Assembly: GCF_037126435.1 (NCBI RefSeq)
Contig: NZ_CP147020.1
Coordinates: 1,587,293 to 1,651,292 of the forward strand
DNA length: 64,000 nucleotides
DNA from: Bernardetia sp. ABR2-2B
GTDB lineage: Bacteria > Bacteroidota > Bacteroidia > Cytophagales > Bernardetiaceae
Direction: 5' to 3'
The position numbers and the translations under genes were made by a program. Below are positions 5,801 to 34,176 of this stretch, one piece after another. How positions within the stretch are numbered: position 1 is the first letter of the stretch; every line of letters begins with the position of its first letter. The notes under the pieces were generated by a model. It was not told the origin of the DNA. It saw only the letters and a program-made list of their open reading frames with translations, and made no database searches.

Positions 5801-6478
5801 ATGAAAAATGTAAATTTGCTTTTCTGTATTCTACCCTTTCTAGTTGTATTTATTGTTTCATCTTGCCAAAGTTCCAAAACAGTTAGTACAAGTAATAATA
5901 CTGATGAAACGAATTATGTTTCTCAAATAAAATCATTTCAAGAAGAAATGAACAGCAGTTATAAAAATGCTAAAGAATCTCCTTTGGAAGAAAGTGAGCG
6001 CAAAAAATTTCAATCATTACCTTTTTTCAAAATTGATGAGAGTTATAAAGTAGAAGCTGATTTTGTCAGAACAACTGATGGAAAACCTTTTGAAATGCAA
6101 ACCACAACAGACAGAAAACCAATTTATCAAAAGTTTGGAGAGGTGAGTTTTGAGTTACTTGGCAAAAGACATATACTCAATGTTTATCAAAGCCAAGATT
6201 TAAGTAAAAAAGAAGAATACAAAAATTACTTATTTTTACCTTTTACAGATTTGAGTAATGGACAAGAATCCTATTACGGAGGACGTTATATTGATTTGCA
6301 AATTCCAGAAAGAGAAGCAGCCGATGGACAAGAGTTAGATAAAATTACGATTGATTTTAATAAAGCCTACAATCCGTATTGCGCTTATAATCATAAATAT
6401 TCTTGCCCAATTCCTCCAAAAGAAAATCATTTGGATGTGAAAGTTTTGGCAGGTGTGAGTTATGAGAAAACAAAGTAA
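5801..6478 (+). CDS. DUF1684-family lipoprotein
   Basis: Lipoprotein signal (VSSCQS). The conserved C-terminal block NPYCAYNHKYSCPIPPKEN is characteristic of DUF1684. Confidence 0.6.
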   Translation: MKNVNLLFCILPFLVVFIVSSCQSSKTVSTSNNTDETNYVSQIKSFQEEMNSSYKNAKESPLEESERKKFQSLPFFKIDESYKVEADFVRTTDGKPFEMQTTTDRKPIYQKFGEVSFELLGKRHILNVYQSQDLSKKEEYKNYLFLPFTDLSNGQESYYGGRYIDLQIPEREAADGQELDKITIDFNKAYNPYCAYNHKYSCPIPPKENHLDVKVLAGVSYEKTK

Positions 6479-6511
6479 GAAGATTAGAAATATAACTTTC
6501 AAAACCTTAGT

Positions 6512-8184
6512 TTACTTCAATCTCAATACATAAGAAAATCCACCTCTAAACTCTTGGAAATCTTGAAAAGACTTTGAAGAATTAGCAATTAAAGAAGAAT
6601 TGAATGAAAAAGTATGACGTTTTTTGAGAGTTGTACTTGCCGTAAAGTTGGATTGAATGACATTTCCATCAGCAATTTTATCTACAATACTTTGATTATA
6701 GGAAGCATCAAAATTGAGTTGAAGAGTCTTTTTGAAGATAGATTTTCCTGCGCCAAGCGTAAAACCATACAAGAGATTTTCTAAGTTAGCAACTTCTACT
6801 CTATTAAAATTCAGCCCAGACATAAACGAAAAACCAGATTGCATATATTGTGTAGAATGATTCAATGAAAAAACTAAGGCTTTCATATCTGCAAAACCTT
6901 GTGTAAAAATATTAAAATCATTGACTTGTTGATAAACAGCAGAAAGTGAAATTGTATGCACCTGCGAAGTATCTTTGATGATGTTATAAAATGGAGAAAC
7001 ACTAATAGATTGAACAGTATTGCGAATACGCAAAGAATCTGAAAGTGGAATATTGCCTTCTTCTTGATTATTGGTATTGTTGGTATAATTGAAATTAACG
7101 CCGTAATGAGGTTTTGGAAGTAAATTTATATTCAAATTTCCGATAGTGCGCCAAGTCGTTTCAGTTCTTGTATTCAATAGATTATTTCGCATTATTCCAA
7201 TCGTTCCATTGACCAAAATTTTATTTTTAGCAAGTGAAATAAAAGGCGTAAGACTAATTCGTTCCATATCATTGGCAAAAAAATACGCTCCCAACGTTTG
7301 ATATTCTGGCATCACTCGTTCATAATCTAATTTCAAAGAATAGGATTTTGCTCTCCAAGCAAGACCAATTTTTCCTGCATACGAAACTCGTGAAGACGCT
7401 TTTGGGTCGACAATCGTATATTCAAAATTACGAAAAGAAGTAGAAGCCAAATCTCTTGTAAAAAAACTCACTCCTACATCTGTATCTAAAGTCAGTTTTT
7501 TGAAAATAGTCAGTTTTCCTACCAAGCCTAGAGCTATATTTTCAGCAGGTGTTACGCCTGTGCTATCTGTCGGACGAAAAATAGAAGTAGAATCATCTTT
7601 TGCTTTAAAAAACACCAAATCCACAAAGTTTTGAGTATTTCCATAACCAGCTTTTATAGCATAACCTTGACGTTTGTAGCGAGGAAGAGCCAAATCTTTT
7701 ACTTCTTGTTGTGGCAAATCACTATTAAAAATTCCATTCATTGCACCAAAACGAAATTTTCCAGTATTGATTTCTACGGCTGCTCCCAAAAAAGTATGAC
7801 CGTTTAAGGTATAATTTGAATAAGTCAAATTTCGGTAACCCAAATGAAGTGTCAAAAATTTCCATTTAGGACTCATTCCAAATTGAAAAAAGGGACGCTG
7901 AAAATCTAGTTGTTGTTTGCCTAGTGTATAAGAAAATGGCAAGTCTATGCCACCTTTCAAACGCAAACCAAAGTTTCCAGTTACATTCCAAAAAAAGGAT
8001 TAGAACGCTGTGGGATTCCACGCACTCCATATACATTAAAAGAAGAAGAAATTGAGCCGTACCAGTTTACAAGATTTGATTTTTTTTGAGTATTTGTTGA
8101 AGTAGAATCGGTATTTTGAGCTGTTGCAGTAAAACAAAGACAACAGAGAAGAGCCAATAAAAGTAGTTTAGATAATGATTTCAT
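6512..8184 (-). pseudogene. outer-membrane beta-barrel protein gene interrupted by a 1-nt indel in a T7 homopolymer (N-terminal 8184..7981 and C-terminal 7966..6512 ORFs)
   Basis: The N-terminal 67-aa ORF carries a signal peptide (MKSLSKLLLLALLCCLCFTATAQ) and ends …SNPFFGM*. The downstream frame reads WNVTGNFGLRLKGG… immediately after the T7 run (plus-strand A7 at 7990-7996). Inserting one T fuses the frames into a roughly 555-aa protein. The body is rich in alternating hydrophobic/Gly/aromatic beta-strand patterns. Confidence 0.6.
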
Positions 8185-8312
8185 AAGCAGTAGGAGTTAT
8201 TCTAGCGCAAGATTCTATCTTGTGCTTATTATTTTGTAAGCATATGCTTACGAAAGAGAGTGTCTAAGCAAGATGCTTGAACGAGAAAAGTTTTTTAAAG
8301 AAAAAGAAGTAA

Positions 8313-10403
8313 TTATCTTAAATCAATTTTTACTTGATTACTCAATTCAGATTCTGAACCGTCTTTATAAATCAATTTTATGACATAGACAAAACCTTTT
8401 TGATTATCATAAAGCGAATAATCTATGTATTCATTTTCTTGAATGGTCGTTAGTGCGACAAATTCAGCTTCTTGTTCCTTACGCAAAATCATCACTTGAA
8501 AACCTTGCTCTTGCTTGTCTTTCCATTCTTTTCCTTCCCAAAACAAACGTAATTGCTTTTCCTTTTTCGAAAACTCTGCTTTTAGTGTTGGAATGAAATT
8601 TTGCTTTCCATTATCATAAAATTGAATTGGTGTAATGGTCGTAATGGCTGATAAATTTTCAGATTGGTCTTTTGCTTGGATAGCATATTGATACCATTTT
8701 GATTTTTCTGTTTTCTTATCCAAAAACTGGCTTGTTGTATCTTCAAAAGTTGCTAAAACCTGCCATTCATCACTCTCTTTTTCTCTTCTCAAAACAGAAT
8801 GCGAAAAAATATCTAAACTACTACTTCTTCTAAAATCTAGTTTAATTCCTTTTTCATTTACTTCATAAAAAGCAACAAAAGGCGAAGTTGGTGGAATAGT
8901 ATCAGGTTTAGATAATTCTAAAATTTCAGAATAATCAGACGCATTATAACGCAAATCTATTGCAGCAATTTTGTAATAAATCTTATTTGAAAGTGTATTT
9001 AAAGAAATTGTATCTAAAAAAATGTCATTTGCAATCGGAGAAACGGTCAGTTGTACAAACTCTCTTTCTTTTGCATTGGCATAATATACTCGGTAGCCTC
9101 TCAAATCTGCTTCTGTTCCTTCTTCCCACTTTAGCCTTACAACTCCCAAACTATCAATCGTTCCTTTTAGGTTTTTTGGTGTTTGAGGTGGAATGCTATC
9201 TACAAGCGTGTGCATTGCCGTCATTGATTTTGAGATATTTCCGTTTTTGTCGTGAGCATAAACAGTATAATAAGAATTAAAAACCTCTTCTGGATTTTTG
9301 TCTATAAATTCATTATTCTTACCTTTTGAGCGTATTGGCTTTTCATTGATATAAATAAATTCGTGTCCAACATCTAATGCTTTTGCTACAAAATACCCTT
9401 CTAAATCAGGTTGTTCGCCTATTGTTTCCCACATTATTTTTACAGAACCATCAGGTAAAGTTTCTGTAAAAATTCCACCAAAACCAGCAGCAGGAGATAA
9501 ATCAATTCCCTGTCCTTCTACCGTTTCAGAAGGCAAACCCATATCTCCAAACGGTGTAATCCCTGTTATTCTGTACGTTGCTTTTTGGTAATTTTGAGAA
9601 ACTGAATCTATATAAAAGTTGTAAGGAATATCTTGGTCTGTAATGCTTGGATTTTCATTTAATGTAAAAAAAGTCTTTCCATCGGTTGATTTTTCTATCT
9701 TAAAAGCTGAAAAAGTATCATTTCCATCTTTATCCCAAGTTATGGTTACTGCGTGTTCGCCTTCCTCCGTCGAAACTCCAATGACAGGATACGGCTCATA
9801 TTTTTCTGTAAAATCAATTCTTACAATCGCTGTATCTACTTCCATTCCTTCAATTTTTTGAGAAGGATAAATAGAATAAATAGCAAAACCCTCTGTTTTT
9901 TGAAAATTATCTTTGAAAGATAAACCCAAACCTTGAGCAGCTTCTTTCTCCATATCAGCCGACAACATTGCAAGAGCATAACGCATCTGTATTTCATTTT
10001 CCGTTTTTTTAGCCGTTTCAAAAGGCGAAGAAATGGCTGCTGTATTTACTGAAACTGTTCCATACATTGCTTCTGCTGCTGCTGTTACATAGGCATTTTC
10101 TGTATTGGTTTTGTTTTTCCATTCTTCTAATGAATATGGTAAAATAGGACTTTGCGTAATTTTTTCAGCTTTGAAATCATCACTATTAATATAAATTTTT
10201 TCAATGGTATAACCAATTTTATTTTTGTGCATTGTGCGCCAAAGCAAAGGTGAAGAAGGAGCAAAGCGCAACAACACTTCCGAGCCTGTAAAACGTCCCA
10301 TTGCTTGAATATTTACTGAATCTTTAAAAGGGTCATTATCTTGTGCAACTGCAAAAGAGAGAGAAACACCCAAAAAGAAGAGAATTAAAAATATATTTTT
10401 CAT
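8313..10403 (-). CDS. secreted multi-FN3 (fibronectin type III-like) repeat protein
   Basis: Signal peptide MKNIFLILFFLGVSLSFAVAQ. At least 5 repeats of about 90-100 aa with FN3 hallmarks (V.I.W…G…Y.V…YY.I.A.D..N.S). Confidence 0.6.
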   Translation of the reverse strand: MKNIFLILFFLGVSLSFAVAQDNDPFKDSVNIQAMGRFTGSEVLLRFAPSSPLLWRTMHKNKIGYTIEKIYINSDDFKAEKITQSPILPYSLEEWKNKTNTENAYVTAAAEAMYGTVSVNTAAISSPFETAKKTENEIQMRYALAMLSADMEKEAAQGLGLSFKDNFQKTEGFAIYSIYPSQKIEGMEVDTAIVRIDFTEKYEPYPVIGVSTEEGEHAVTITWDKDGNDTFSAFKIEKSTDGKTFFTLNENPSITDQDIPYNFYIDSVSQNYQKATYRITGITPFGDMGLPSETVEGQGIDLSPAAGFGGIFTETLPDGSVKIMWETIGEQPDLEGYFVAKALDVGHEFIYINEKPIRSKGKNNEFIDKNPEEVFNSYYTVYAHDKNGNISKSMTAMHTLVDSIPPQTPKNLKGTIDSLGVVRLKWEEGTEADLRGYRVYYANAKEREFVQLTVSPIANDIFLDTISLNTLSNKIYYKIAAIDLRYNASDYSEILELSKPDTIPPTSPFVAFYEVNEKGIKLDFRRSSSLDIFSHSVLRREKESDEWQVLATFEDTTSQFLDKKTEKSKWYQYAIQAKDQSENLSAITTITPIQFYDNGKQNFIPTLKAEFSKKEKQLRLFWEGKEWKDKQEQGFQVMILRKEQEAEFVALTTIQENEYIDYSLYDNQKGFVYVIKLIYKDGSESELSNQVKIDLR

Positions 10404-10466
10404 TGTTTTTTATTGATTAGAAACCGTCGTTGAGACTCAAATGCAGTCGTCAACGAGGCTTTTTAG

Positions 10467-13400
10467 TTATTTTTTGACTTTATAATTGAAAGATTTTCCT
10501 TCTAAAGTGATAGTATAGTTGTGCGAACCAAGCAGGTATAAAGGTCTTTCAAAAGAAGTGTAAAATGACTGATATTTTGAAGGTGTTATTCCTTTATAAT
10601 GACCATTTTGCAGAAAGTGATCTTTAACATTAAGAGCCTTATTGTGTGCAAATTTTTGAAGTTTTTGAATATCTCTAGCCAAAATGTAATTTCTATATTC
10701 GATAATCGGAATGTAGTATTTTGTATTACTATCAAAACCTAAGTTATTATCAAATTGGTTCTTAGAAGGTTTTGGAACATTGATTTGTAAATTCAACCCT
10801 CCTAGATTCAAGTTTTGCTTTGGAGCTTTTGCTCTTGCTTGTTGAATTTCATAAGGCGAAATAAGTGTTTTGGGAAGTGTATACGTTATTCCTTTTGGCT
10901 TAAATAAAGAACTTGGATAATTTGATGAGTTTCTATTCGAACCAACTCTATAAACCTTTTGATAATGAGGACGATAAAACATAATCGTATTTCTCATTTC
11001 CAAATTATAAATTGGGGGTTGAAACGTCTTGTTACTTCCAAAATTATACAATCCATAATAACGAGTAGGGTGGAATGTTGGAACAAAATTTAAAATTCCT
11101 TCTCCATACTTAGCTTTCAAAATAGAATGTTTGAAATGCTCGTTCGCATATTCTTGTGGAAACTGATTTGTATTTTGATAAGCTGTCATTAAACTAATGC
11201 CGTTTGTGGTGGGTGGAGTCAAATCTAAGTTTTTCCCGAAACCTAATTTTCTTGTCGCTTGTACATAACCATACGCATCCACTACATCAATCGGCTCATC
11301 ACAAGCAAGGGCAATCATAGCCACTTCTGCACACTGATTATTTCCTATTGATATAGTTGCTAATTCAGCTTGTTTAATACTCATTTTATTCATCTTATCT
11401 ATCATTTTATTATACTTTCCAGTTCTGAAATGATAAGTAAGAAGTTTGGTTTCAACTTGTTTTTTAGAGTTACGGCTGCCTTTGAGAGCTGTATAATATG
11501 CCATACTACTTCCTCCAATATTTTTCTCTATTTGATTCGTGTTTGCTCCTGCTGACAAGTTATTATTTCCTTCTTTATCAATACGAATAATACTGATTTC
11601 ATAAATGGTAGAACCTTCTAATTGTGGAATTTGGAAATTAACTTGGTCAAAAGTACAGTTTACCTTATCTGTATCTATGCTTTTGCCTGTTTTGAGGTCT
11701 GTAAAACGAGTTACAAAAATAGTTGAGCCTTCAGAAATATGTAGTTTTTCAAATAAAGGTTGGTCGCAAATAGACTTTGTAAGTTTTACATTACCCCACC
11801 TTGCGCCTTTAAAGGCATAACGAGACCTTGCAAAAGGATTTGCACTCACAATCTGACTTTGAGGAATCTTCTTTAATCCTGTATCTGTTGTGAAAGAAGT
11901 TGATTTATGTTGAGTAGCTAGTTTGGTATGAATATTATTTTCAATTTCCCAACCTGAAACTTCTACATAAAACGTATATTTTGTTTTTGGTTTTAAGGCT
12001 TCTTTTGCTACAAAATAGGCTTCTTTTTGGTATTTATCGAATTTGGTTTTACCTTCTACAATTATCTTTTTTCCTCCTTCTTGATATGATAGTTCAGCTT
12101 TTTGCAAACGAACATAAACTGTACTGACTTCATCTTGCTCATCTTCGTTTTCGGCAGGTACAACCAATTTGTAGGTATTACCTGAATAATACTTTGTAAT
12201 GCCTTGGCTTTCATCTCTACCAATTCCCAAATTAAAAGATACGCTTGGGTCAGTCATTACACTTGCTTTTTTAGAGCCTTCTTTTGGAGCAATTTGAGAA
12301 ATTAGAGGATAATCATCAAAAGGATTTTTATTTCCTTGTCCTGTAAACTCACATTTTTCGCCAAACTCAAATTCAAAATCCATATTTATTTTGATGCGAT
12401 TTCCTAAAAGTCCACCCTTTACGACAAAGTTTCCACCCAAATAACTAGGATTTGGAGCTTCTACCTCTACAAGTGCAGCACTCTTCAAGTCTATTATTTT
12501 GAATTCCCTCTCTTTACCAAATAGTTTTCCTTTAAAACCTGCTTCTCCACCAAAATATCCGTAAGCTTGTCCCTTTGCTCTCCATTTATTGATTCCAAAA
12601 TCAGATTTATTATTACAAAGTGTTTCATCACTATATTTAGCAAGAAGAATATCAAAACCTGCAAAGAGTTCAAAGTCAGCATAGAGAAACAAAAACTTTG
12701 CATCTAAAGCTCTTCTGAAACCTAGTCCCATTGCAAAACCTTTTCCTTCTTGCGCTTCTTGGTATTGTGCCTTTTGTGATATTGGAAGATTGAGTGTCTG
12801 ACGTATTTTTTTAGGGACAGATGGCAAATATTGAGGAATATGCGTTCCCATCATAAAATAACCATTGTAAGAAAGTGTGGTAACTTTCAAATCAATATTC
12901 ATATTCAAACGGCTCTTGTCATTCCAAGGCTCATCTTGCATAGCTTGTGATTTTGACCATTTTCCTAAATTCAGATACCATTTGTTTGGTTCAAAATGTA
13001 ATTCAAGGTTTCCGTTTCCTTGCACCACATCTCCAGCTTTTATATTGATTGCACCAGCCATATTAAAAGCAGGTTTGATGGCATCAATTTTTATTCTGAC
13101 CGAAGCACTAGCCACAGCATTTATTTTTTCTGCCATTGGTAAATCAATTGGCTGCATAAAATAACCATCGCCTTTTAAAATAAGCGAATCTAAAGCTAGT
13201 CCTTTTACATTATCATTTCGCATAAATACTTCAAAACCTAAATCAGCATTAAAACTAGAAGCAGCATCTGCACCACCAGAAAGCCCCAAAACCATATTGG
13301 CTTTGAAACCAAATTTGTCTTTTTGAGGTGTAAATGTAGTTCCTGAAACGGTTTGCCCTGCTTCTGAATTTGGATCAAAATCAACTGTTTCAAACTGCTC

Positions 13401-16400
13401 ATAAGAAACTGCTTTTGGCGTTTCTCCTCGTTTCATATTGTACCACGCACCACCACCAAAACCATAGGCAGACAAAGAAGTAGTCATAGGAATACCTGTT
13501 TTTAGCAATGCCATTGCATCAAAATACCAGTATCTAAATCCTTCTTTTGTAACTTGATTATTTTTGTTTTTGATAGAAAGTGTTTTTCCAATCTGTAATG
13601 TAGCATCTACTTTTACTAGCTTTTGAATATCAACACTTACTGCACCTCTAAAACCATTACCAAATGTTTGGTCTTGTTTATAAATATCAACTTCTCCTGT
13701 AAAGTGAGCTACACCGATATTTGCATCAATATTAATACTGTTTAAAGAAGTTTCTTCATAACTTAACTTTTTAGTATTTTTATTATACTTAGAAAAAACA
13801 GTAAAAGTAGTTCCTCCTTTTATTCCGTTAGCAAGGTTTATAAGCGTGAGTTGTGGTGATAACTTTATCCCATATATTTCTCCATTGCCTTTTTGTACAG
13901 AAGTAAGTTCTAAAGGTTTCTCAGGATCAAAGGATAAAGGAAAGTCTGCCAAACGACTTTGTGGTTGGTTTGGGTTTTCTAAAGCAAACTTTGTAAAAGA
14001 CTGAATGAGCTTATTAGAGCCACTTTTTAAAGCTAGTTTTTCGAAACGAATATCAGGAAGTGAAAAACTAGATACATTATTTTTATCTAATTCTTCTTCT
14101 TGTCCTTCCGAATTTTTGGCTTTTCCATCTGCCCAGTTGATACTTATCGCTCCATTTAATTCGGCATCAACGCCCCATTTATTATTCTTTTCTTTGATGG
14201 TAATTTTCGAGTCTTCGTCCAAATCTAAAGTAGCCACCCAAGCTGACACTGAATACTCTTCATTAGTTATGACAGAAAAAATAAAATCAGCATCTCCATT
14301 TTGATTGGCTTGATTGATAGAGCCTTCATAACTCAAGGCTTCATCAGTCAGAGGAATTTTGAGGTTTCCTTCCATAAGTCCACCAGAAAGCGAACTATTT
14401 TTGAGTGTAATTCCAAACTTTTCAAGTGAAATAGCCCAGTCATCAACATTTCCATCATTTAAAGAAAGTAATTCTCCACTTGCATCAATTTTTCCAGAAA
14501 AACCTAACTTGTCTATGATAAATTCATCAGCTTCCAACACTAAAGCCTTTTTATCTTTCTTAAATACTTTTGGCAGCGTTACACTCAAGTTTTGAATATA
14601 AACTCCTACCCAATCATTTCCTTTTTGATGTTTTTGTTTGACAGAAGTAGGTGTTTTTTTACCTGACAAATCCAACGACAAAGAAGGCGCAGCAAAAACC
14701 AAGTTTTGAGCCGATGGCAGTACAAAAGAAGGATAATTAAAATCAGCTTCAAAAATCCAACCTCCAGCCTGTTCGATTTCTGTTTGGAAAGTTGCTTGTA
14801 GTTTTTTGTTTTCGTTCTGAACTACTTTGTTATCTTGATACGGCAAAACTTTATTTCTTGACCACTCCAAATGACCTTTTAAAGCTACGTTTTCGATTCC
14901 TTTACAACTAAAATTTGCATACGTATTTTGCTGTCCTTTTTCTAGGATTAATGTCAAATCATTCGAAAGTTTTAAGGTTTTATCACTAGAAAGTGAAATT
15001 CTACCTTCTGTATCAGCACAAAAACCATTCGGACGGATTCCCAAGCCTGTTCCTGTAAGCATAAAAAGGTCATTCTGTACAACTTGTGGAATTTCCACTC
15101 CCAAAACAGTGTGCATTTTGGCTTCCGTTGGAGAAAAAATAATTCCGACAATCGCCAAATTATAATTATTATTATCTAAACTTAAAGGCAAACCTATCGG
15201 AACATTTCCACCCAATTTAGAAACTTGTCTTGAGACATTTCCTAAAAACTGATTGATTTGTTTGGCTTTACTAGCGATGCTTTCCAAATCTGCATTTGGA
15301 TTTTCACTTATGGCTTGACTAATCAAGTTTTGATTATCTACCTTTGCATAAATATTTCCATCAAAGAGTTGAAAGTTATCATTTACTTTCAGATTATTAA
15401 ATTTTACTTTTATAGGAGCATTCAGAAAGGCTACCAAAATTGTCCCTTCTCCCGAATTATTTCCATTGATAGAAGTAATTTTCATCTTAAATTTTCCTGC
15501 AATTATTTCTTGTCCTACTGAAAGCTTTAGGGGTGCAGAAGGTGTAGGCGCAACAATTTGACAAGCAGCCATACATTCAGGCGAATCTTGTGGGTCTTTA
15601 GGAATGTTTGGATTATCGTCATCGTTTGGTAAATCACCTCCATCCACAACGACTACTACATCATCAGGAGGGGGAGGATTATCATCTTCTCCATCATTAT
15701 CGTTATCATCATCACCTTCGTTATCTCCATCACCCACAACTACAATTTTATCATCTTCATAAGTAAAAGAAGTAACAGGGCTGTGTCCTTGATTTTTGAA
15801 TTGAATCGAATTGCTAGGGTCGTAAGCCGTTACACGAAGCGCATATTTTCGTCCTTCTTGCAAAGGAGGCATCGCCAAAGTATATGAAAATGTATTTGTG
15901 ATAATATTATCTTTCTCAAAATAAGTTTGAATAGATGGATTATTAAAAGCATCGTTGATATTGAATAAATTATTTGCACTCATATCCACAATTTCTAAAC
16001 GATAACGAGTTTTTGAAGGCACACCAGCAGGAGTCCAAACAAAATTCACAAATTGAGGTGTACTAGGATTTATTTTGGCTTCATGAAGTGGCAAAACCAT
16101 AATTGGAGGGTCATAATTGGTAATGACAATCGAAGCACAACCAAACTCAGAAGATAAAAGTGTGTTATTCTGAAACTCAAAAGCCTTTATACACAATGAA
16201 TAAGCACCTTCTGGAAGAGCCTCATTTTGAGCCAATGTAGAAACAGAAACCCCTTGTATTTGTACGTCGTTTTCTGTTAGATTTGCATTAAAACTTTGCA
16301 GTTGGTTGTAAGTAAAAGTTCTTGTTTGTCGTGGATTTAGAACAATAGGAGCAGTCGGAAAGTAACTCTCTTTTACTCTGACAGAAACACCATTATTTCC

Positions 16401-16628
16401 TTCTAAAGAAGGAATTAGACGGATTTGCTTGGTTTCATTGCTTGTGTTGGTAAGCGTAATAATTACAGAATTTCCTCTATTGATATAATTTTCTAAATAA
16501 ATAGAATACGGAGGAACGACTGTAACAGTCACGTTTATAGGTTGTGAAAAAGCTGTTTGAATGTTAAGAATACAAACAAATAAAAATGCTAAAATTGATA
16601 GGTAAGTTTGGTATTTTTGTGTCCTCAT
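10467..16628 (-). CDS. giant (2053-aa) secreted protein: N-terminal Ig-like region, poly-Asp/Asn/Gly/Pro linker, then a very beta-strand-rich C-terminal region of about 1700 aa
   Basis: Signal peptide (…LNIQTAFSQP). An acidic low-complexity tract VVVGDGDNEGDDDNDNDGEDDNPPPPDDVVVVVDGGDLPNDDDNP (about aa 295-345). Long runs of alternating hydrophobic residues with frequent G/Y/F in the remainder. Same strand and tight spacing with the two downstream genes. Confidence 0.6.
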   Translation of the reverse strand: MRTQKYQTYLSILAFLFVCILNIQTAFSQPINVTVTVVPPYSIYLENYINRGNSVIITLTNTSNETKQIRLIPSLEGNNGVSVRVKESYFPTAPIVLNPRQTRTFTYNQLQSFNANLTENDVQIQGVSVSTLAQNEALPEGAYSLCIKAFEFQNNTLLSSEFGCASIVITNYDPPIMVLPLHEAKINPSTPQFVNFVWTPAGVPSKTRYRLEIVDMSANNLFNINDAFNNPSIQTYFEKDNIITNTFSYTLAMPPLQEGRKYALRVTAYDPSNSIQFKNQGHSPVTSFTYEDDKIVVVGDGDNEGDDDNDNDGEDDNPPPPDDVVVVVDGGDLPNDDDNPNIPKDPQDSPECMAACQIVAPTPSAPLKLSVGQEIIAGKFKMKITSINGNNSGEGTILVAFLNAPIKVKFNNLKVNDNFQLFDGNIYAKVDNQNLISQAISENPNADLESIASKAKQINQFLGNVSRQVSKLGGNVPIGLPLSLDNNNYNLAIVGIIFSPTEAKMHTVLGVEIPQVVQNDLFMLTGTGLGIRPNGFCADTEGRISLSSDKTLKLSNDLTLILEKGQQNTYANFSCKGIENVALKGHLEWSRNKVLPYQDNKVVQNENKKLQATFQTEIEQAGGWIFEADFNYPSFVLPSAQNLVFAAPSLSLDLSGKKTPTSVKQKHQKGNDWVGVYIQNLSVTLPKVFKKDKKALVLEADEFIIDKLGFSGKIDASGELLSLNDGNVDDWAISLEKFGITLKNSSLSGGLMEGNLKIPLTDEALSYEGSINQANQNGDADFIFSVITNEEYSVSAWVATLDLDEDSKITIKEKNNKWGVDAELNGAISINWADGKAKNSEGQEEELDKNNVSSFSLPDIRFEKLALKSGSNKLIQSFTKFALENPNQPQSRLADFPLSFDPEKPLELTSVQKGNGEIYGIKLSPQLTLINLANGIKGGTTFTVFSKYNKNTKKLSYEETSLNSINIDANIGVAHFTGEVDIYKQDQTFGNGFRGAVSVDIQKLVKVDATLQIGKTLSIKNKNNQVTKEGFRYWYFDAMALLKTGIPMTTSLSAYGFGGGAWYNMKRGETPKAVSYEQFETVDFDPNSEAGQTVSGTTFTPQKDKFGFKANMVLGLSGGADAASSFNADLGFEVFMRNDNVKGLALDSLILKGDGYFMQPIDLPMAEKINAVASASVRIKIDAIKPAFNMAGAINIKAGDVVQGNGNLELHFEPNKWYLNLGKWSKSQAMQDEPWNDKSRLNMNIDLKVTTLSYNGYFMMGTHIPQYLPSVPKKIRQTLNLPISQKAQYQEAQEGKGFAMGLGFRRALDAKFLFLYADFELFAGFDILLAKYSDETLCNNKSDFGINKWRAKGQAYGYFGGEAGFKGKLFGKEREFKIIDLKSAALVEVEAPNPSYLGGNFVVKGGLLGNRIKINMDFEFEFGEKCEFTGQGNKNPFDDYPLISQIAPKEGSKKASVMTDPSVSFNLGIGRDESQGITKYYSGNTYKLVVPAENEDEQDEVSTVYVRLQKAELSYQEGGKKIIVEGKTKFDKYQKEAYFVAKEALKPKTKYTFYVEVSGWEIENNIHTKLATQHKSTSFTTDTGLKKIPQSQIVSANPFARSRYAFKGARWGNVKLTKSICDQPLFEKLHISEGSTIFVTRFTDLKTGKSIDTDKVNCTFDQVNFQIPQLEGSTIYEISIIRIDKEGNNNLSAGANTNQIEKNIGGSSMAYYTALKGSRNSKKQVETKLLTYHFRTGKYNKMIDKMNKMSIKQAELATISIGNNQCAEVAMIALACDEPIDVVDAYGYVQATRKLGFGKNLDLTPPTTNGISLMTAYQNTNQFPQEYANEHFKHSILKAKYGEGILNFVPTFHPTRYYGLYNFGSNKTFQPPIYNLEMRNTIMFYRPHYQKVYRVGSNRNSSNYPSSLFKPKGITYTLPKTLISPYEIQQARAKAPKQNLNLGGLNLQINVPKPSKNQFDNNLGFDSNTKYYIPIIEYRNYILARDIQKLQKFAHNKALNVKDHFLQNGHYKGITPSKYQSFYTSFERPLYLLGSHNYTITLEGKSFNYKVKK

Positions 16629-16730
16629 TAGTATTGATGATGATTTATGTAATGATTGTTTTCCTATTTTTTATTTAGAAAAGACATTATTTTATAGCCT
16701 CATTTTTTGATAAAAATGAGTATTGGTATT

Positions 16731-16759
16731 CTGATTTAACTTTTGATATTACTGATTTA
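16731..16759 (-). promoter_or_regulatory. candidate LytTR-type operator: direct repeats CTGATTTA spaced 21 bp, about 100-130 bp upstream of the giant gene
   Basis: CTGATTTA occurs at 16731-16738 and 16752-16759. The 21-bp periodicity matches the typical spacing of LytTR (AgrA-like) binding repeats. The background is AT-rich, so chance is possible. Confidence 0.2.
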
Positions 16760-16923
16760 TATATAGAACAAGTGAGTTAAGACTACTTTAAAAATACAGA
16801 AATAACTTACTCCTTTGACTTGTTAAAATATGTTACGTCAAAAATCTTTAAAAAGGTTCTGTAAGGCAAGTAAAATGAGGCAAACGGTAACTTTTGGGGC
16901 GAATGGCAAGGTAATTATATAAC

Positions 16924-19287
16924 TTAATCCTGTTTTTTTGTGAATATTTCTATTTTTTGCTTAATGATAGAATTGTTTTTTCTTGATACAGGGATAAGCT
17001 CATCGCCATAAAATAAGTGTAATTTGTAGCCTTGTGAGTTTCCAGAAATGTGTTTTACTTGATGAAGATTGATAAGATAACTTTTATGACAGCGAAAAAA
17101 TTGAGGAAAATCTTTTTCTAAAATTTCTGAAATAGATTTGAGTGTATTGCGAATTAGTTTTTTTGAAATGATTTTATTCTCTAAAAAAATAATTTCTAAA
17201 TAATTATCAGCAGCTTGAATGTAGAGTAAATTATCTGATTCTATTTTAAAATCTTCTTCTTTGTTTTCAGTTGGTATAGAGATAAGGTTAGATTTTATTT
17301 GCAATGATTCTGTAAGAGTAGGTTCTGTTTTTTTATGCTGTGATACTTCTAGTTGTTTCTCTACTTCCTCTATTTTTTCTAGTCTTTCAAATTCAATTCC
17401 TACAGAATTATTTTGAAACTGTTCTTTGTTATTAGGCAGCTTAGTAGTTTCATAGATCAATTTTCTCCTTGTTTCAAAATAATTTTTGATATAAAATGAA
17501 ATAAGAATAGGAAAAACAGCCACAGAAATAGTATAAAATTCAAATTTTAGGATTCCCCAAATTGTTAAGTCAATAAAACCAGCCCAATTAGCGTATAAAA
17601 TATTTACAAAACCTATTGTTCCAATATTGATAATGGTTACTACAAGTTCTTTTGCTACTGTCCAATTTTCAGTTTGAAATAGTTTAGGAAAAAAATAGAA
17701 TGCTACTACTTGAAATGCAAACATTACAGTAAAACAAATAAGTCCAGACCCAAAAGCGACCTCAAAAATATTTAATTGATGTCCGTAAGCTATTCCAAAA
17801 GGCTGAAAAATGAGCAAGAAAAAGCTGATAAACAGACTATAAACTACACAAGTCCAAATGCGTTTTTGAATAGAAGTTTCTAGTGGATACTGTCGTGTAA
17901 AAAATGAAATTATAGTTTCTTTACTTAAAGAAAACTGATTATTTCTAACTCTTTCTTCCTGTATTACGTTTTGTTTTGGTATAACTTTTTGGTTTTCTTT
18001 TTTAGTTTCTAAAGTCTGCAACTGCTTAATTTCATGTTCTTTTTTCAATACATTTCTTTTGTCTCCCAAAGCAAAAGAAATAAACAAAACTTCTAGGACT
18101 GAGCCTAATTGTACAGGATTTAAGTAATTACTAGGAGGTAACAAAACCAACGTTTGGGCTATGGCTAAGATAAAACCTAGTGTCAAGAATCCCCATCCTA
18201 ATAAATAATATTTGGCAGGTCTAAACCCTCGGTAATAACTTAAAATTCCTGTGATAAGCAATACAATTCCTAAGGTCAGAATTCCCACTTGTGATAACAT
18301 CCAAGCCTCAATTTTGAAGCTGGAAAAAACCAATAGAATAATCAGAAATCCAAAAACAATATAGAAGTTTAAAAGATATGAAAGCCATTTAGGCAATATA
18401 ATTTTTGCAAAAAAAGTCTTGGTAAAAATTACAGCAAAAATTTGCATCAGAGCAGCTTGTAGGATAATAAACTGGTTTAGCTCTGGTATTTCTGGCCACA
18501 AGTATTTAAAAGAATAGCTATAAATACTTGCCATAAAAAACATTGTAAAAAAAGCATAAAGCACATAAGTCAGATACACAAGTTCTCTATTAATCAGAAA
18601 AACAAAAAGGTTATATAAAATGACTAGAATCATAAAACCTAAGTATATGCCTTGAGCAAAATCAAAATCACGAACAAAGGCAAGGTAATTCTCTGCAGAC
18701 CAAGAACGAAAAGAAAACAAAAGGGGTTGTAGCGAACGGATGCGTATGTAAATCATACTTTCAGAAACTTCTTCGACTGGAAATGTAAAATAGCCCACTT
18801 GAAAAGGACGACTTGAAAAGGGGTAATTATCTCCTGTCGTAATTTGTTGAATAATTTTTCCTTGAGCATTTACTTGATAGAAAGTAATCTCATCTAAAGA
18901 ACCTGCTCCTAATTCAATACGGTTATCTCCTTTTGAGATACTTTGATAAGGTATTTTGAGCCAAAAAGACGAATAAGAACTTTCTAAATTTATATATTCT
19001 AATGTATTTTGTTCAAAATTATAGGATTCATTTCCTAGTAAGTCTTGAAGTGTGAGTGTTCTTTTAGCATCTTCAAGTATAGATACCTCTTTGCCTAACG
19101 TATGAAAAGTATAAGCCTGTGCTTTCAAAGACAGGCAAGTTAAAAGTGAGATAAAAAGGCTAAAAGTAAAGGCTACATAAACACACTTTTTAAATGATAT
19201 TCCCAAAGGGTATTGCTTTCTTAGTAATGAGACAAGAAACATAAAAAATAATAGTAGTAGTGGTAATTCTCTGATTGGGAATGTCAA
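16924..19287 (-). CDS. membrane receptor-regulator: 7TMR-DISM (extracellular DISMED2-like domain plus 7TM) fused to a C-terminal LytTR DNA-binding domain
   Basis: Signal/TM, an extracytoplasmic domain of about 170 aa, then 7 or more TM helices (typical 7TMR-DISM_7TM layout). After a coiled-coil linker, the C-terminal 100 aa match the LytTR fold motif (…LLYIQAADNYLEIIF…FFRCHKSYLINLHQV…). Confidence 0.65.
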   Translation of the reverse strand: MTFPIRELPLLLLFFMFLVSLLRKQYPLGISFKKCVYVAFTFSLFISLLTCLSLKAQAYTFHTLGKEVSILEDAKRTLTLQDLLGNESYNFEQNTLEYINLESSYSSFWLKIPYQSISKGDNRIELGAGSLDEITFYQVNAQGKIIQQITTGDNYPFSSRPFQVGYFTFPVEEVSESMIYIRIRSLQPLLFSFRSWSAENYLAFVRDFDFAQGIYLGFMILVILYNLFVFLINRELVYLTYVLYAFFTMFFMASIYSYSFKYLWPEIPELNQFIILQAALMQIFAVIFTKTFFAKIILPKWLSYLLNFYIVFGFLIILLVFSSFKIEAWMLSQVGILTLGIVLLITGILSYYRGFRPAKYYLLGWGFLTLGFILAIAQTLVLLPPSNYLNPVQLGSVLEVLFISFALGDKRNVLKKEHEIKQLQTLETKKENQKVIPKQNVIQEERVRNNQFSLSKETIISFFTRQYPLETSIQKRIWTCVVYSLFISFFLLIFQPFGIAYGHQLNIFEVAFGSGLICFTVMFAFQVVAFYFFPKLFQTENWTVAKELVVTIINIGTIGFVNILYANWAGFIDLTIWGILKFEFYTISVAVFPILISFYIKNYFETRRKLIYETTKLPNNKEQFQNNSVGIEFERLEKIEEVEKQLEVSQHKKTEPTLTESLQIKSNLISIPTENKEEDFKIESDNLLYIQAADNYLEIIFLENKIISKKLIRNTLKSISEILEKDFPQFFRCHKSYLINLHQVKHISGNSQGYKLHLFYGDELIPVSRKNNSIIKQKIEIFTKKQD

Positions 19288-19392
19288 TTAAAACAATCTT
19301 TTGATGCAACAAGAAAAGGATATTTTTTTGTAAAAGCGAATTAGACTTGAAGTCAAATTAAAATAGGGAGTATCCCATCAAGTGTGTAAGTA

Positions 19393-19436
19393 GAAAATAA
19401 CATAGTTTGGGACATGTCCCAAACTATGTTATTTTC
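19393..19436. repeat. perfect 44-bp palindrome followed by a T-rich run
   Basis: GAAAATAACATAGTTTGGGACATGTCCCAAACTATGTTATTTTC is self-complementary with zero mismatches. It is followed by TTTTCTTTTTTCTTTTC on the plus strand. Confidence 0.8.
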
Positions 19437-19469
19437 TTTTTTCTTTTCAACTCTTAAACTTTACATACG

Positions 19470-19948
19470 ATGAATCCAGAAGAGATATTTAATGATGATT
19501 TTTTTAAACAGTTCAAAACAGGTAAAGACCTTACCAACTTTTTAACAGCTCTCCAAAAACGAGGGATAGAAAAAATGTTGGAAGGAGAACTAGATGCTCA
19601 TTTAGAGTACGAAAAACATCAAAAAGTCCTACACAGAACAAACGCAATGGACACAGCACTAAGAGCATAAAGACCAGTTTTGGTCAATCTCAAATCAAAG
19701 TACCTAGAAACCGTGAAGCCTCTTTTAACCCAATGCTTATTCCCAAACGAAAAAGTATGGTAGAAGGTATTGAAAATGTGATTGTTTCGCTCTATGCCAA
19801 AGGAATGAGTGTCTCTGATATTGAAGCTCAAATTAAAGAAGTCTATAATTTTGAGGTCTCTCCTAGTACCATTTCACGTATTACAGATAGCATTACCAAT
19901 GACATCGTAGCATGGCAAAACCGTCCTTTAGAACCTGTCTATTTGTAG
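19470..19948 (+). mobile_element. IS256-family (Mutator-type) transposase N-terminal remnant, frameshifted and truncated
   Basis: Two short ORFs in different frames match the IS256 transposase N-terminus (…LEGELDAHLEYEKHQ… and …IVSLYAKGMSVSDIEAQIKEVYNFEVSPSTISRITD…WQNRPLEPVY). Only about 140 aa are present and the catalytic DDE region is absent. Confidence 0.65.
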
Positions 19949-20053
19949 GTGTTGAATAGAAACGTTTTCAAAGATAATAAAGTTGCTGAACAACAACAAT
20001 TTAGATCTATTTACCGTAAACTAATAAAAAACAATCTCAAAACTTTCACAACA

Positions 20054-20239
20054 ATGAAAAAGCATCAAAACAAAGAAGAAGACAAAGAAGTAGAAAAAAA
20101 ACCTATCCAAAATCAAGAAGAGAAAACTCATATTGAAAATTCAAAAGAGAAAATCACAGAACTCTCAGATGAAGAACAAGAAGACTTGAGAGCAGAAGCT
20201 AGAGAACGTTACAATCGTTTATTGGGCTGTGGGGGTTGA
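20054..20239 (+). CDS. possible small acidic, Lys/Glu-rich protein (61 aa)
   Basis: ORF MKKHQNKEEDKEVEKK…RYNRLLGCGG lies directly downstream of the transposase remnant. There is no homology signal and it may be non-coding. Confidence 0.2.
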   Translation: MKKHQNKEEDKEVEKKPIQNQEEKTHIENSKEKITELSDEEQEDLRAEARERYNRLLGCGG

Positions 20240-20243
20240 TATT

Positions 20244-20699
20244 TTATTCAATACAATATTTTATTTCTGTAAATAAATCTTGATAGGCTTTTTGGTCAAA
20301 TACAAATGAGCCTATTTTTTTATACTCTTCAAAATCTGTTTCTTCATATCCATTTTCATAAGCAAAATCTTTCCAAACAATTGAATCATCTAATCTTTCG
20401 ACTTTGACAGTCATTGCTCCACAACCAATATCTAAACATTCGGAGCAGCCATAAATCATTATCCTACCATTTTCTAATTCTGGTTCTTTTTCTAGTAAAA
20501 GTTCCTTTATTTTTTCTTCTCGGTAATTACTGTTGCTAGATGTCTCGATTACTCCTATCATTCCGAAATCTTTCACACTTAATAATTCAGACAAAGGTTT
20601 TCCATCAATTATAAAATCAAAATAAAACCTTTGACTCATCATTGCCCCTCCAAGTTCTTCAAGTTTAGTTTGAGTTTTGTATGATAAACTATTTTTCAT
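20244..20699 (-). CDS. hypothetical small protein with a CxxC…C cluster
   Basis: The annotated ORF overlaps the upstream gene by 52 nt from 20825. The internal Met at 20699 (MKNSLSYK…) gives a non-overlapping 151-aa product. It contains CSECLDIGCG. Confidence 0.4.
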   Translation of the reverse strand: MKNSLSYKTQTKLEELGGAMMSQRFYFDFIIDGKPLSELLSVKDFGMIGVIETSSNSNYREEKIKELLLEKEPELENGRIMIYGCSECLDIGCGAMTVKVERLDDSIVWKDFAYENGYEETDFEEYKKIGSFVFDQKAYQDLFTEIKYCIE

Positions 20700-20772
20700 C
20701 TTAGTATCTATTTTTATGAAACAGACTAGGAAGTCTGTTATAAAAATGATTTCAGCTTTACTGATAACTGAC

Positions 20773-22896
20773 TTAATACCCTCCTTGAAATTTTCGTACT
20801 CCCCATTCAAAACTAGCAAGTCCAATAATCAAGAGCATAATCCACCATAAATTAATTACTTCTGAAAGCTGTTCATTTCTAAAAACCGTCGGTGTAGGAA
20901 TCTGATTTTGTAGAGAATCTTGCAAAACTTGTAGATTATTAAGCGTATAAAAATTTCCTTTATTTTGCTGTGCCAGTCTTCGCATAACACCAAAATCTGC
21001 CGTAGCATTTAAGCTTTCCAATTTTATTTCTTTTACTGTAAATTGCCCGATTGAAACTTCTGTTTTCCCGTCTAGTTGAGTAGTTGCTTTAAAAGAATAT
21101 GCTCCCTCTGGAAGTGCAGAAGCAGAATATCTAAAGGGAGAAGCATTATTTGTAAAGGTATAAGTTCTTGTTTTTCCTTCTTCATCTTTAATTTCTAAAC
21201 GAATATTTTGCCCTAAAAGTGGTTCATAAATCGCATTATAAATTTCTACATCAAAACTCACACCATCAGAAGTAGAAAACTGTGAAGCTGTCGGCGCAAC
21301 TCTAAAACGTCTTTTGTCTTCTTTAGTAGAAAGATATTGAATTATTTTACTCAAAAGTGCATCATATCCTTCTTGATTTTTATTTTCTGCATATTCATTT
21401 AATCGCCATTGCCACGTATTTTCGGCAAGCCAAACTCCTGCTTTTTTGCCATTTTTTTCACTCATCACTACTAATGGCTTTTTGGTCTGAATATTTCCAA
21501 CTCGTTGATACAACATAATTTCAGCTTGTGGCGAAATATCATAATCAGCAAACGGAACAAGCGCAGGAGGATAGGAAGCAAAACGGCTTTTTTGTTCGTC
21601 TGTTAGATAAAACTTTGAAAAATTGGAGTTCCAAAATGGAATTACTTTATCAGATTGATTCCCTAAAGGACGAATTTTCACACCTGTATTCAATGAATTA
21701 AAAGCATTATAATCACTTTGCGCTCCAATAACAAAAAGCTCGGCAGAAGTGAGTTTGCGAAGTTTTTCTAAAACAGGTAGTGGTCTTCCCATTTTATCAG
21801 GAAATTGATGATAAATAATAAGGTCATACTTATCCTCTAATTTAGTAGTACGTAAATGAGGCAAGTGAATATAAGGCAAATAAATATCAAACTTGTAATT
21901 CTCATTTTTTTCTATCGCTGCACGAAATGCCTTTATATCTGGGTGAGGCGCAGCAGCAACTAAAAGAATTTTTTCTTTGCTATCAATAATGTCAATATAA
22001 GCGTGGGCTGTATTATTTTGCTTTGTAAACTCTCCTTCTTGTGGCACAATCGTAACAACATAATGCTGAATGCCTTTTGAGGTTGCTTTTATCAAAAACT
22101 CAATACTTTTAAGGTCATTTGGATTAGAACTAAATTTCGCTTTTTTGGTAGAAATGGTTTTTCCATTTTGTGATAAAATTACCGTAATTTCTCTATTCTC
22201 AAAACCTGTATGTGTAACTTCTGCCACGATTGGAAATTGATTTCCTAAATACGCCATCTTATTATGAAATAGACTTTTCAATATTATATCTTTTTTTGGA
22301 ATCGTATCGCCTACTCCAATTGTTTGAAGTGAAAAAGAATAGGGCGAAATATCAGGTGCAAGTCCTTGATTGTAAGCACCATCAGAAAGCAAAACTACAT
22401 TAGAAAGGTTACGATTTTCAAATTCACTTTGAATACTTTTGAGCAAATCACTAATAGGAGAAGAAGTATAATTGAAGTTTATTTTATTCGTATTATTATC
22501 AATATTATTTCTCAAACTATCATTTTCTAGTTCTCTCAAAGTTCTGTATTCCACATCAAATCCTTTTTCTTCAAGGTTTTGAGCTGTTTGTTGGATAGAA
22601 TTTAAAGCCGAATTTATTTTAGTAGAATCTTCTTGTAATAAAATTGAAGCCGAATTATCAATCGCAAAAACAACCGTTGGGTTTTCGTAACGAGTAATAA
22701 ATTGCTGCATCAAAAGTCCTATTAACAGGATTGCAAGAACAGAAACCCACAAAAAACGAATGGCAGCCAATGCTTTTTGCCAGTTTTTGCCCCACGGCGA
22801 ACTTCTTTTATAATACAACAAAGCAGCATAACCAGCTCCTAAAAGCAAAGCTACAAGTATCCAAGCACTAGAATATTCTGTTAAAAAGATAGGCAT
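20773..22896 (-). CDS. membrane protein with an N-terminal double-transmembrane (two_anch/TIGR02226-like) domain and a C-terminal TM anchor
   Basis: The N-terminus has two TM helices separated by a short loop (…AWILVALLLGAGYAALLYY…FLWVSVLAILLIGLLM…). A large extracytoplasmic region follows. The terminal helix is WWIMLLIIGLASF. Confidence 0.55.
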   Translation of the reverse strand: MPIFLTEYSSAWILVALLLGAGYAALLYYKRSSPWGKNWQKALAAIRFLWVSVLAILLIGLLMQQFITRYENPTVVFAIDNSASILLQEDSTKINSALNSIQQTAQNLEEKGFDVEYRTLRELENDSLRNNIDNNTNKINFNYTSSPISDLLKSIQSEFENRNLSNVVLLSDGAYNQGLAPDISPYSFSLQTIGVGDTIPKKDIILKSLFHNKMAYLGNQFPIVAEVTHTGFENREITVILSQNGKTISTKKAKFSSNPNDLKSIEFLIKATSKGIQHYVVTIVPQEGEFTKQNNTAHAYIDIIDSKEKILLVAAAPHPDIKAFRAAIEKNENYKFDIYLPYIHLPHLRTTKLEDKYDLIIYHQFPDKMGRPLPVLEKLRKLTSAELFVIGAQSDYNAFNSLNTGVKIRPLGNQSDKVIPFWNSNFSKFYLTDEQKSRFASYPPALVPFADYDISPQAEIMLYQRVGNIQTKKPLVVMSEKNGKKAGVWLAENTWQWRLNEYAENKNQEGYDALLSKIIQYLSTKEDKRRFRVAPTASQFSTSDGVSFDVEIYNAIYEPLLGQNIRLEIKDEEGKTRTYTFTNNASPFRYSASALPEGAYSFKATTQLDGKTEVSIGQFTVKEIKLESLNATADFGVMRRLAQQNKGNFYTLNNLQVLQDSLQNQIPTPTVFRNEQLSEVINLWWIMLLIIGLASFEWGVRKFQGGY

Positions 22897-27394: not shown

Positions 27395-27402
27395 TTACTT
27401 CG

Positions 27403-28707: not shown

Positions 28708-28716
28708 TATATAAGA

Positions 28717-31231: not shown

Positions 31232-31246
31232 AAAGTAAAGAAACTA

Positions 31247-31966: not shown

Positions 31967-31969
31967 AAA

Positions 31970-32836: not shown

Positions 32837-32838
32837 AA

Positions 32839-34133: not shown

Positions 34134-34175
34134 ACTTGTTGGTATCGCCGAGCTAAAACACCAACAAAGGCTAGG
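34134..34175. repeat. copy 1 of the hairpin repeat family (core GCTAAAACACCAACAAAGGCTAG)
   Basis: TTGTTGGT…ACCAACAA inverted arms around the loop ATCGCCGAGCTAAA. Near-identical copies at 50347-50386 and 57696-57732. Confidence 0.75.
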
Positions 34176-34176
34176 T

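Follow-up and report, generated by a model that had tools for sequence, protein, structure and literature searches.

The DNA analysed here, a 64,000-nucleotide (nt) stretch of contig NZ_CP147020.1 of Bernardetia sp. ABR2-2B (positions 1,587,293 to 1,651,292, hereafter the window), has a low GC content of about 31% and carries on its minus strand a block of four co-oriented genes (Table 1). From upstream to downstream they code for a membrane regulator, a giant exported protein of 2053 amino acids (aa), a smaller exported protein with FN3-like repeats, and an outer-membrane beta-barrel. A preliminary description of the locus had listed the same four genes. It placed the receptor about 300 bp upstream of the 2053-aa gene, which agrees with the measured spacer of 295 bp, and gave gaps of 63 and 128 bp within the three-gene block; the former, between the giant and the FN3 gene, is exact, and the latter, between the FN3 and the barrel gene, is right only if the barrel starts at the ATG at position 8184. 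Signal peptides had been claimed for the three downstream proteins, and reading the sequence by eye we likewise find signal-peptide-like N-termini followed by Q at position +1.

The block has sharp borders. From 6512 to 19365 the window aligns by blastn with three related genomes, namely Bernardetia sp. OM2101 (locus L009) and two further related loci (L089 and L090), at 80–90% nucleotide identity. The similarity ends abruptly at 6512 and at about 19365, the DNA outside is unalignable on both sides, and the genes flanking the block differ in every one of the four genomes. Because of these sharp ends and differing flanks we conclude that the four genes travel as one block. The regulator and the three downstream genes are thus a discrete conserved unit in differing genomic contexts of Bernardetia-like genomes. 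The exact sequence of the 696-aa protein was absent from the genome collection searched; the closest relative there is OM2101, with amino acid identities from 92% (giant) to 95% (barrel).

Table 1. Features of the four-gene block (window coordinates; aa, residues of the giant protein)
Feature	Position	Strand	Basis or remark
One-component membrane regulator, 787 aa	16924..19287	-	Pfam and hydropathy topology
Regulator upstream region	19288..19365	-	Outer edge of the conserved block; blastn to L089 and L090 reaches 19365, then stops
Conserved non-coding block, 109 bp	16815..16923	-	Directly after the regulator stop codon; candidate operator/promoter
Small hairpin CTCATTTTT-ATC-AAAAAATGAG	16699..16720	-	About 70 nt upstream of the giant ATG
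Giant exported protein, 2053 aa	10467..16628	-	Open reading frame and TIGR02542 similarity
Giant, signal peptide	aa 1-29	-	Sequence reading: MRTQKYQTYLSILAFLFVCILNIQTAFS, then QP
Giant, N-terminal module, TANFOR-like and FN3-like	aa 30-295; 15744-16541	-	
Giant, acidic linker	aa 296-345; 15594-15743	-	
Giant, all-beta core	aa 346-1470; 12219-15593	-	AlphaFold2
Giant, C-terminal region, less conserved	aa 1471-2053	-	
Exported FN3-like protein, 696 aa	8313..10403	-	Five tandem units of about 100 aa (aa 201-696) and an N-terminal unit
Beta-barrel gene	6512..8184	-	557 aa once repaired; -1 frameshift
T7 homopolymer, frame break	7990..7996	-	T8 would encode Phe-Phe of RSNPFFW

The giant protein can be assigned to a published class. 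TANFOR proteins were proposed by Jana, Salomon, and Bosis in 2020 as a class of Bacteroidetes polymorphic toxins (PMC7073777; TIGR02542). These authors identified 339 such proteins, about 87% of them with Sec signals; many carry C-terminal nucleases or other toxins, among them AHH, BaCT (shown to be a DNase), and VIP2, and are followed by immunity genes (PMC7073777). Residues 31–160 of the giant match positions 4–136 of the 145 positions of the TANFOR model with a sub-threshold score of 29.8 bits (E = 4.9e-7), and the giants of the other cassettes described below reach 24–49 bits. In a word-indexed search we found 35 homologues, most of about 1,900–2,300 aa and all named either hypothetical or TANFOR domain-containing; one with 54% identity carries the TANFOR name from JGI. 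Moreover, homology over the N-terminal 290 or so residues extends to every giant (hhalign probability 100%). Judged by its sequence, this part of the protein is a divergent TANFOR module, homologous in spite of the sub-threshold score.

A further search with the giant family profile added almost no homologues, and the AlphaFold2 model of the core (aa 345–1470) is therefore based on only 29 sequences. The model is all-beta (pLDDT 79, pTM 0.48), with a meander of about 20 long amphipathic strands between aa 935 and 1425. The acidic linker and the beta-patterned sequence that had been noted at first are thus both borne out. Beyond aa 839 the giant has no Pfam or NCBIfam match at E ≤ 0.1, and sequence and profile searches of the PDB with the giant and with its C-terminus (aa 1576–2052) came back empty. 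No match to a DUF490/TamB or AsmA domain was found in Pfam and NCBIfam, nor a profile match in the PDB.

The 696-aa protein had been described as a protein of five FN3 domains. Its five units are indeed mutually homologous (hhalign probability 98–99%), and its N-terminal unit is related to the repeats and carries an insertion. The similarity to Pfam fn3 is sub-threshold only. Orthologues of this protein in the TANFOR table of 2020 have FN3/COG3401 matches in the CDD (PMC7073777).

The barrel gene was first taken for an intact gene of about 555 codons, which is not what we find. The frame that begins at the ATG at 8184 ends after 67 codons at a TAA (7981–7983), and the rest (6512–7966) lies in another frame. 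When one T is added to the T7 run the gene codes for 557 aa; the product has 94% identity with an intact homologue of 559 aa (P0036), and the motif RSNPFFW, common to all near and distant relatives of the barrel, is restored. At the same site OM2101 reads CCATTTTACTGG. The break could be a sequencing error in the homopolymer, a recent inactivating mutation, or a switch based on slippage. Were the break real and no sequencing error, the strain would have a system that is impaired or switched off.

The repaired barrel has no sequence relative in Pfam, NCBIfam, or the PDB. Nevertheless its family is large: an indexed search gave at least 254 matches, and an exhaustive profile search 3,537 clusters at 50% identity, 1,813 of which have E ≤ 1e-30. 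Almost all of the best 150 matches listed are of 540–600 aa. AlphaFold2 predicts with a pLDDT of 88 a barrel of about 26 strands, as counted from the DSSP strings of the models, with no plug, POTRA, or periplasmic domain. By analogy with LptD–LptE and MtrB–MtrA, a barrel of about 26 strands is expected to house a partner.

The preliminary description had identified the first gene as a 7TMR-DISM receptor fused to a LytTR output domain, and all three Pfam domains score well above their cutoffs. The protein, probably starting at the ATG at 19242, has a signal or anchor segment (aa 36–54), a 7TMR-DISMED2 domain at aa 65–197 (PF07696, 84.6 bits, cutoff 22, E = 8e-24), a 7TMR-DISM_7TM domain at aa 214–407 (PF07695, 131.5 bits, cutoff 29, E = 5e-38), a cytoplasmic linker rich in Lys and Glu, four transmembrane helices (aa 477–600), and the LytTR domain at aa 680–779 (PF04397, 51.8 bits, cutoff 22.6, E = 1e-13). 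Hydropathy shows seven hydrophobic segments within aa 214–407; seven plus four helices place the output domain in the cytoplasm.

Directly upstream of the cassette, L009, L090, and L089 have a fusion protein or a LytTR gene. L090 codes for a fusion of 776 aa. In L089 the same position (8492–9520) is taken by a 342-aa derivative in which the N-terminal signal region is joined to the half with the four helices and the LytTR domain. This natural deletion of the DISMED2 and 7TM sensor could, judged from its layout, be a constitutive or signal-blind form. The fusion is restricted to the Bernardetia clade. LytTR regulators classically govern toxins and bacteriocins.

The spacer between regulator and giant gene contains a candidate target for this regulator. 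The 109 bp that directly follow the regulator stop codon are 85–89% identical in L009, L090, and L089, which is the level of the neighboring coding DNA; the remainder of the spacer is 33–41% identical and not alignable. The block occurs once in the window and contains TTAC-N-TTGCC-like repeats as well as an inverted pair GTTACCG / CGTAAC. We infer from these features that it may be the operator/promoter of the giant-protein operon. Neither a stable conserved RNA fold nor a conserved open reading frame was found in the block; a 31-codon frame on its opposite strand was rejected as coding, being truncated in OM2101. The small hairpin closer to the giant gene is found in all four related loci; in OM2101 a double change replaces one T-A pair by C-G, and L089 has a single mismatch.

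A Bacteroidetes-type −33/−7 promoter was not found by eye, a scan for sigma-70-type promoters and terminators gave results no better than shuffled sequence, and Rfam gave nothing meaningful over positions 6000–20500. The spacer between the FN3 and the barrel gene (8185–8312, minus strand) has three palindromes, one of them the perfect 16-bp GTAAGCATATGCTTAC. Its identity to OM2101, about 98%, is above that of the flanking coding DNA, and its RNA fold z-score is −2.15. As a conserved RNA element the palindromes were rejected, since they are kept only in OM2101 and not in L089, L090, or L004.

We then looked at the genomic context of the barrel family. When one genome was scanned for each species, a barrel relative turned up in 243 genomes, and 80 of these loci were fetched. 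A TANFOR giant adjoins the barrel in 65 of them, and in 55 of the 80 the FN3 protein is also present, after the giant gene. The barrel comes first in 59 of the 65 loci with a giant, and the distance from the barrel stop to the giant start is then typically −17 or −41 nt, that is, the genes overlap. Most of the other 15 loci lie at contig ends or have the giant first with its 5′ end beyond the fetched flank. The conservation of the gene neighborhood on which the preliminary description had staked its proposal is thus found, distant taxa included. In Parapedobacter, Mucilaginibacter, and Algoriphagus the barrel is followed by a giant of 2,100–2,650 aa and then by a protein of about 670 aa, and each of the three proteins has its homologue in the window. 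Fulvivirga ligni has the order barrel, giant, FN3. The order giant, about 700-aa protein, about 555-aa protein is seen in a metagenome contig and in the Saprospiraceae locus L002, where a SprB and Por_Secre_tail gene stands between the FN3 and the barrel gene.

The giants are modular. About 30 of them have a core of the type found in the window, and the remaining ones have CarboxypepD_reg-rich bodies of 1400–2700 aa. Apart from the N-terminal module both types share one further module of about 156 columns (hhalign probability 94%, E = 1.6e-7; columns 1105–1288 of the profile of alignment A1 against columns 1927–2092 of the non-core profile).

Some lineages have variants of this arrangement. 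In Emticicia (L081 and L087, about 9880–12540) the gene after the barrel codes for a protein of 281 aa, which is a TANFOR N-terminal module and nothing else; apparently the module exists without a payload. Upstream in the same loci are three tandem genes of about 620 codons which match a single-sequence hidden Markov model of the DISMED2 and 7TM region of the window regulator. Metagenome-assembled genomes (MAGs) of Bacteroidales (L076, 11568–18910; L059, 11580–15749) have one barrel and after it two or three TANFOR-module proteins of 311–1062 aa, each with a gene of its own. These arrays recall arrays of alternative cargo, and a Pfam search gave no toxin domain for any of the proteins. Spirosomataceae cassettes of the core type (e.g. 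L055, L058, L067, L071) have a gap of about 1 kb between the giant and the FN3 gene. In Runella sp. SP2 this gap corresponds to an extra signal-peptide protein of about 350 aa listed in the supplement of 2020 (PMC7073777), a fourth cassette gene in this lineage.

At least nine lineages have some sensor or regulator module directly beside the cassette. Fulvivirga and Saprospiraceae have a histidine kinase with a response regulator (RR) of the LytTR type; in a Bacteroidales MAG a kinase lies a few hundred base pairs downstream of a LytTR gene, and Arsenicibacter has a LytTR gene directly upstream. A TPR-His_kinase is found in Parapedobacter and Algoriphagus, a TPR-HisKA_3 kinase of about 640 aa with an RR-GerE upstream of the Spirosomataceae cassettes, a Y_Y_Y-HisKA_3 kinase with an RR-GerE in Mucilaginibacter, and a 7TMR-DISM-SpoIIE protein in L004. 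Of these lineages, Fulvivirga, Saprospiraceae, Arsenicibacter, Parapedobacter, and Algoriphagus thus have response regulators of the LytTR type or LytS-type kinases beside the cassette. A universal link to LytTR was considered and dropped: the Spirosomataceae proteins of about 640 aa are TPR-HisKA_3 kinases paired with GerE and not 7TMR-DISM or LytS proteins. Since the kind of regulator differs across lineages, we regard it as an exchangeable add-on and not as a defining part. The cassette looks like a tightly regulated unit with an exchangeable regulator.

Our suggestion is a regulated TANFOR cassette whose barrel serves to export or anchor the giant protein via the conserved N-terminal module; we favor this reading and give it an even chance. 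The wider proposal, namely that the barrel and the FN3-repeat protein are a new dedicated outer-membrane secretion or anchoring pathway of Bacteroidota whose substrates are defined by the TANFOR module, is more tentative, and on balance we would rather bet against it. The process could be envisaged as follows. The 7TMR-DISM-LytTR protein would sense an extracytoplasmic ligand, bind the 109-bp block past its own gene, and switch the operon on. The three Sec-exported proteins would then form one functional unit. After export by Sec the giant could pass through the barrel or be anchored by it; the barrel would be dedicated to this protein and would recognize or house the TANFOR module as TpsB does with the TPS domain or LptD with LptE. 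The remaining giant might be displayed on the cell surface or released from it, and the FN3-repeat protein might be a periplasm-spanning or surface accessory.

Several points weigh against this proposal. The step in which the barrel would bind or transport the giant is one that we infer only. The barrel gene is frameshifted in the very window under study, and the TANFOR match of the giant is below the curated cutoff of 67 bits. Three loci (L010, L014, and L016) have a barrel with neither a TANFOR nor an FN3 gene in the available flanks. As for the regulation, the type of regulator varies among lineages, its adjacency in the related genomes is not independent evidence, and by eye we recognize no canonical LytTR direct-repeat operator with a spacing of about 21 bp.

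The giant could instead resemble SprA or LptD and be a very large outer-membrane barrel or an amphipathic beta-belt; together with the barrel and the FN3 protein it would build a fixed envelope machine, e.g. for the transport of polymers, lipids, or nutrients. Given the long amphipathic strands modelled at aa 935–1425, the giant may itself be membrane-embedded. However, TM-scores of only 0.1–0.2 (against SprA about 0.19 when normalized by the query length and 0.12 by the target length), a very high root-mean-square deviation, and a pTM of 0.48 do not establish the closure of a barrel, which in SprA has 36 strands. The giant has no Pfam match to SprA_N or LptD, and between its N-terminal module and the core lies an acidic disordered linker. 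About half of the cassettes, moreover, have unrelated CarboxypepD_reg-rich sequence in place of this body, with the N-terminal module staying constant. As the body varies between cassettes and the N-terminal module does not, we rank this explanation lower and regard it as unlikely.

Jana et al. raised the hypothesis that TANFOR proteins are exported by type IX secretion systems (T9SS) and left the route open (PMC7073777). The giant would then be a T9SS substrate and the barrel an attachment partner similar to PorP/SprF or PorV rather than a translocon. TANFOR neighborhoods are indeed rich in SprB, Por_Secre_tail, Fn3, and PKD domains, and more than 95% of the TANFOR genomes encode a T9SS (PMC7073777); the gene inserted into the Saprospiraceae cassette L002 fits in here as well. 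Neither a type A (TIGR04183/PF18962) nor a type B (TIGR04131) T9SS C-terminal domain (CTD) is found at E ≤ 0.1 in the giant, the FN3 protein, or the barrel, in line with the impression first gained from the C-termini. We think that T9SS export is quite improbable as an account of this locus.

Similarly improbable is the idea that the regulator is a mere neighbor that controls other genes, with the three downstream genes expressed independently. It could appeal to the 295-bp gap, to the different regulator families of different lineages, and to the many loci that have no LytTR gene in their flanks. But regulator and cassette form one sharp-bordered block in four genomes with differing flanks, the DNA after the regulator stop codon is conserved like coding DNA, and a sensor or regulator module is recurrently found directly by the cassette. 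Least probable of all is a strict polymorphic-toxin locus with an unrecognized toxin in the C-terminal 300 or so residues of the giant and an immunity function nearby: TANFOR proteins with AHH, BaCT, or VIP2 ends do exist, conservation within the giant family is lowest in the C-terminal region, and toxins and bacteriocins are classical targets of LytTR regulators, but no toxin domain is found when the giant and 12 further barrel-linked TANFOR proteins are scanned, the C-terminus has no PDB relative and is kept, not swapped, among relatives down to 54% identity, and no small immunity-like open reading frame lies between the giant gene and the FN3 gene that follows it at 63 bp.

The surroundings of the block contain further elements. 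Just outside of it an N-terminal fragment of an IS256/Mutator-family transposase (19469–19950, plus strand, continuing to about 20240; model positions 15–160 of 379) is truncated and frameshifted at an A run, the second homopolymer-associated frameshift in the window. OM2101 has a piece with 72% identity to it about 6.7 kb past the barrel (L009, 18299–18470). Between the regulator upstream region and the fragment there is a perfect hairpin with a 20-bp stem and a T run (19392–19437), which has only spurious microRNA-type matches in Rfam and may be a bidirectional terminator or the end of an insertion sequence. Two open reading frames of 193 and 707 codons (20244–20825 and 20773–22896, minus strand) overlap by 53 nt, the larger with a weak VWA match; they may be one gene split by a further frameshift, with consequences for how the sequence quality of the window is judged. 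A polysaccharide-biosynthesis cluster (26207–45693, minus strand) with at least four GT4 glycosyltransferases, an epimerase/oxidoreductase fusion, and a capsule-synthesis protein has no evident link to the cassette. On the plus strand follow a CarboxypepD_reg-Plug-TonB-dependent receptor (55068–57689) and a 983-aa TPR-CHAT protein (59282–62233). A TPR-CHAT gene is also found near the Parapedobacter cassette (L006, 2004–4661), probably by coincidence.

If the proposed function of the cassette is true, the cassette would do with unrelated parts what two-partner secretion does, and it would explain how TANFOR proteins, the toxin-bearing ones included, leave the cell without a T9SS signal. In the sampled genomes of Cytophagia, Sphingobacteriia, and Saprospiria and in MAGs of Chitinophagales and Bacteroidales, TANFOR proteins sit in a fixed cassette with a barrel and an FN3 protein, and the co-encoded barrel makes the question of their secretion directly testable. 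The analysis also brings out a large outer-membrane family with thousands of members that has no name, model, or structure. Finally, a sensor-regulator in one polypeptide together with a candidate operator offers a handle on the inducing signal.

In the open-access literature we found nothing relevant on the cassette as a system and no paper that describes a 7TMR-DISM-LytTR fusion. The system had been put forward as undescribed. This appears to hold for the barrel family and for the cassette as a system in the literature searched, and does not hold for the giant, whose class is already published and whose cassette is common. Supplemental Data 1 of the 2020 paper lists orthologous trios with the barrel unannotated, and the word "barrel" has no occurrence in the text (PMC7073777). 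In Dyadobacter beijingensis, for example, a 2,467-aa TANFOR protein is preceded at −17 by a 559-aa signal-peptide protein and followed by a 662-aa FN3 protein; the cassettes of Spirosoma panaciterrae, S. oryzae, and Dyadobacter jiangsuensis (our loci L040, L056, and L043) are also in the table (PMC7073777). The TANFOR proteins of Flavobacteriia (rows 1–14, including VIP2 and AHH toxins) have an upstream PKD-repeat lipoprotein of about 450 aa and a downstream signal-peptide protein of about 790–800 aa with no domain (PMC7073777), which may be an analogous set of outer-membrane partners.

The preliminary description could not place the trio among PorP/SprF of the T9SS, SusCD, TamAB, or BAM, and our searches agree: no Pfam or NCBIfam match to the defining domains and no T9SS CTD was found. 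With respect to SprA, PorV, and PorP–SprF, the trio has no match to SprA_N, PorV, PorP_SprF, or a FadL-like family, the barrel is not a 14-strand PorV barrel, and from cassette to cassette the giants lack a conserved body. Plug and TonB_dep_Rec have no Pfam match in barrel or giant, and the same type of search does find the true receptor at 55068–57689. From chaperone-usher systems (PapC/FimD) the barrel differs by the lack of an Usher match, a plug, and the N- and C-terminal usher domains; neither a PapD-like chaperone nor pilin-like subunits were found, and the cargo would be a single protein of 2000 aa. With the plug-and-barrel complexes LptD–LptE and MtrB–MtrA, whose barrels have 26 strands, it shares generic barrel geometry only, as there is no sequence relation, no N-terminal jellyroll of LptD, no cytochrome, and no LptE homolog.

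The regulator has the same input and output domains, above the Pfam cutoffs, as known 7TMR-DISM receptors and LytTR regulators (AgrA/ComE/BlpR type and membrane-linked LytTR systems). It differs from them in that input and output are combined in one polypeptide with 11 transmembrane helices and no kinase or receiver domain. An operon of exported proteins as its target matches the usual LytTR targets. Like other members of the TANFOR class the giant is a large Sec-signal protein of Bacteroidota with an N-terminal TANFOR and then an FN3-like domain in an Fn3-rich neighborhood; it differs by its sub-cutoff TIGR02542 score and by the lack of a recognizable toxin or immunity gene, and the barrel of about 560 aa is omitted in the paper.

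In its proposed mode of action the cassette comes closest to two-partner secretion or to a plug-and-barrel complex. Two-partner secretion (TpsA/TpsB, as in FhaB/FhaC and CdiA/CdiB) differs in its parts. TpsB is an Omp85-type protein, and the barrel of the window has neither the POTRA domains nor the 16-strand Bac_surface_Ag barrel of Omp85, TpsB, BamA, and TamA, but about 26 strands; the giant has no TPS or haemagglutination-activity domain, and the cassette has a third gene for an FN3-repeat protein. In both systems, however, the gene of a dedicated barrel is coupled to that of a giant beta-rich exoprotein, and in both the giant carries a conserved N-terminal module in front of a variable distal part.

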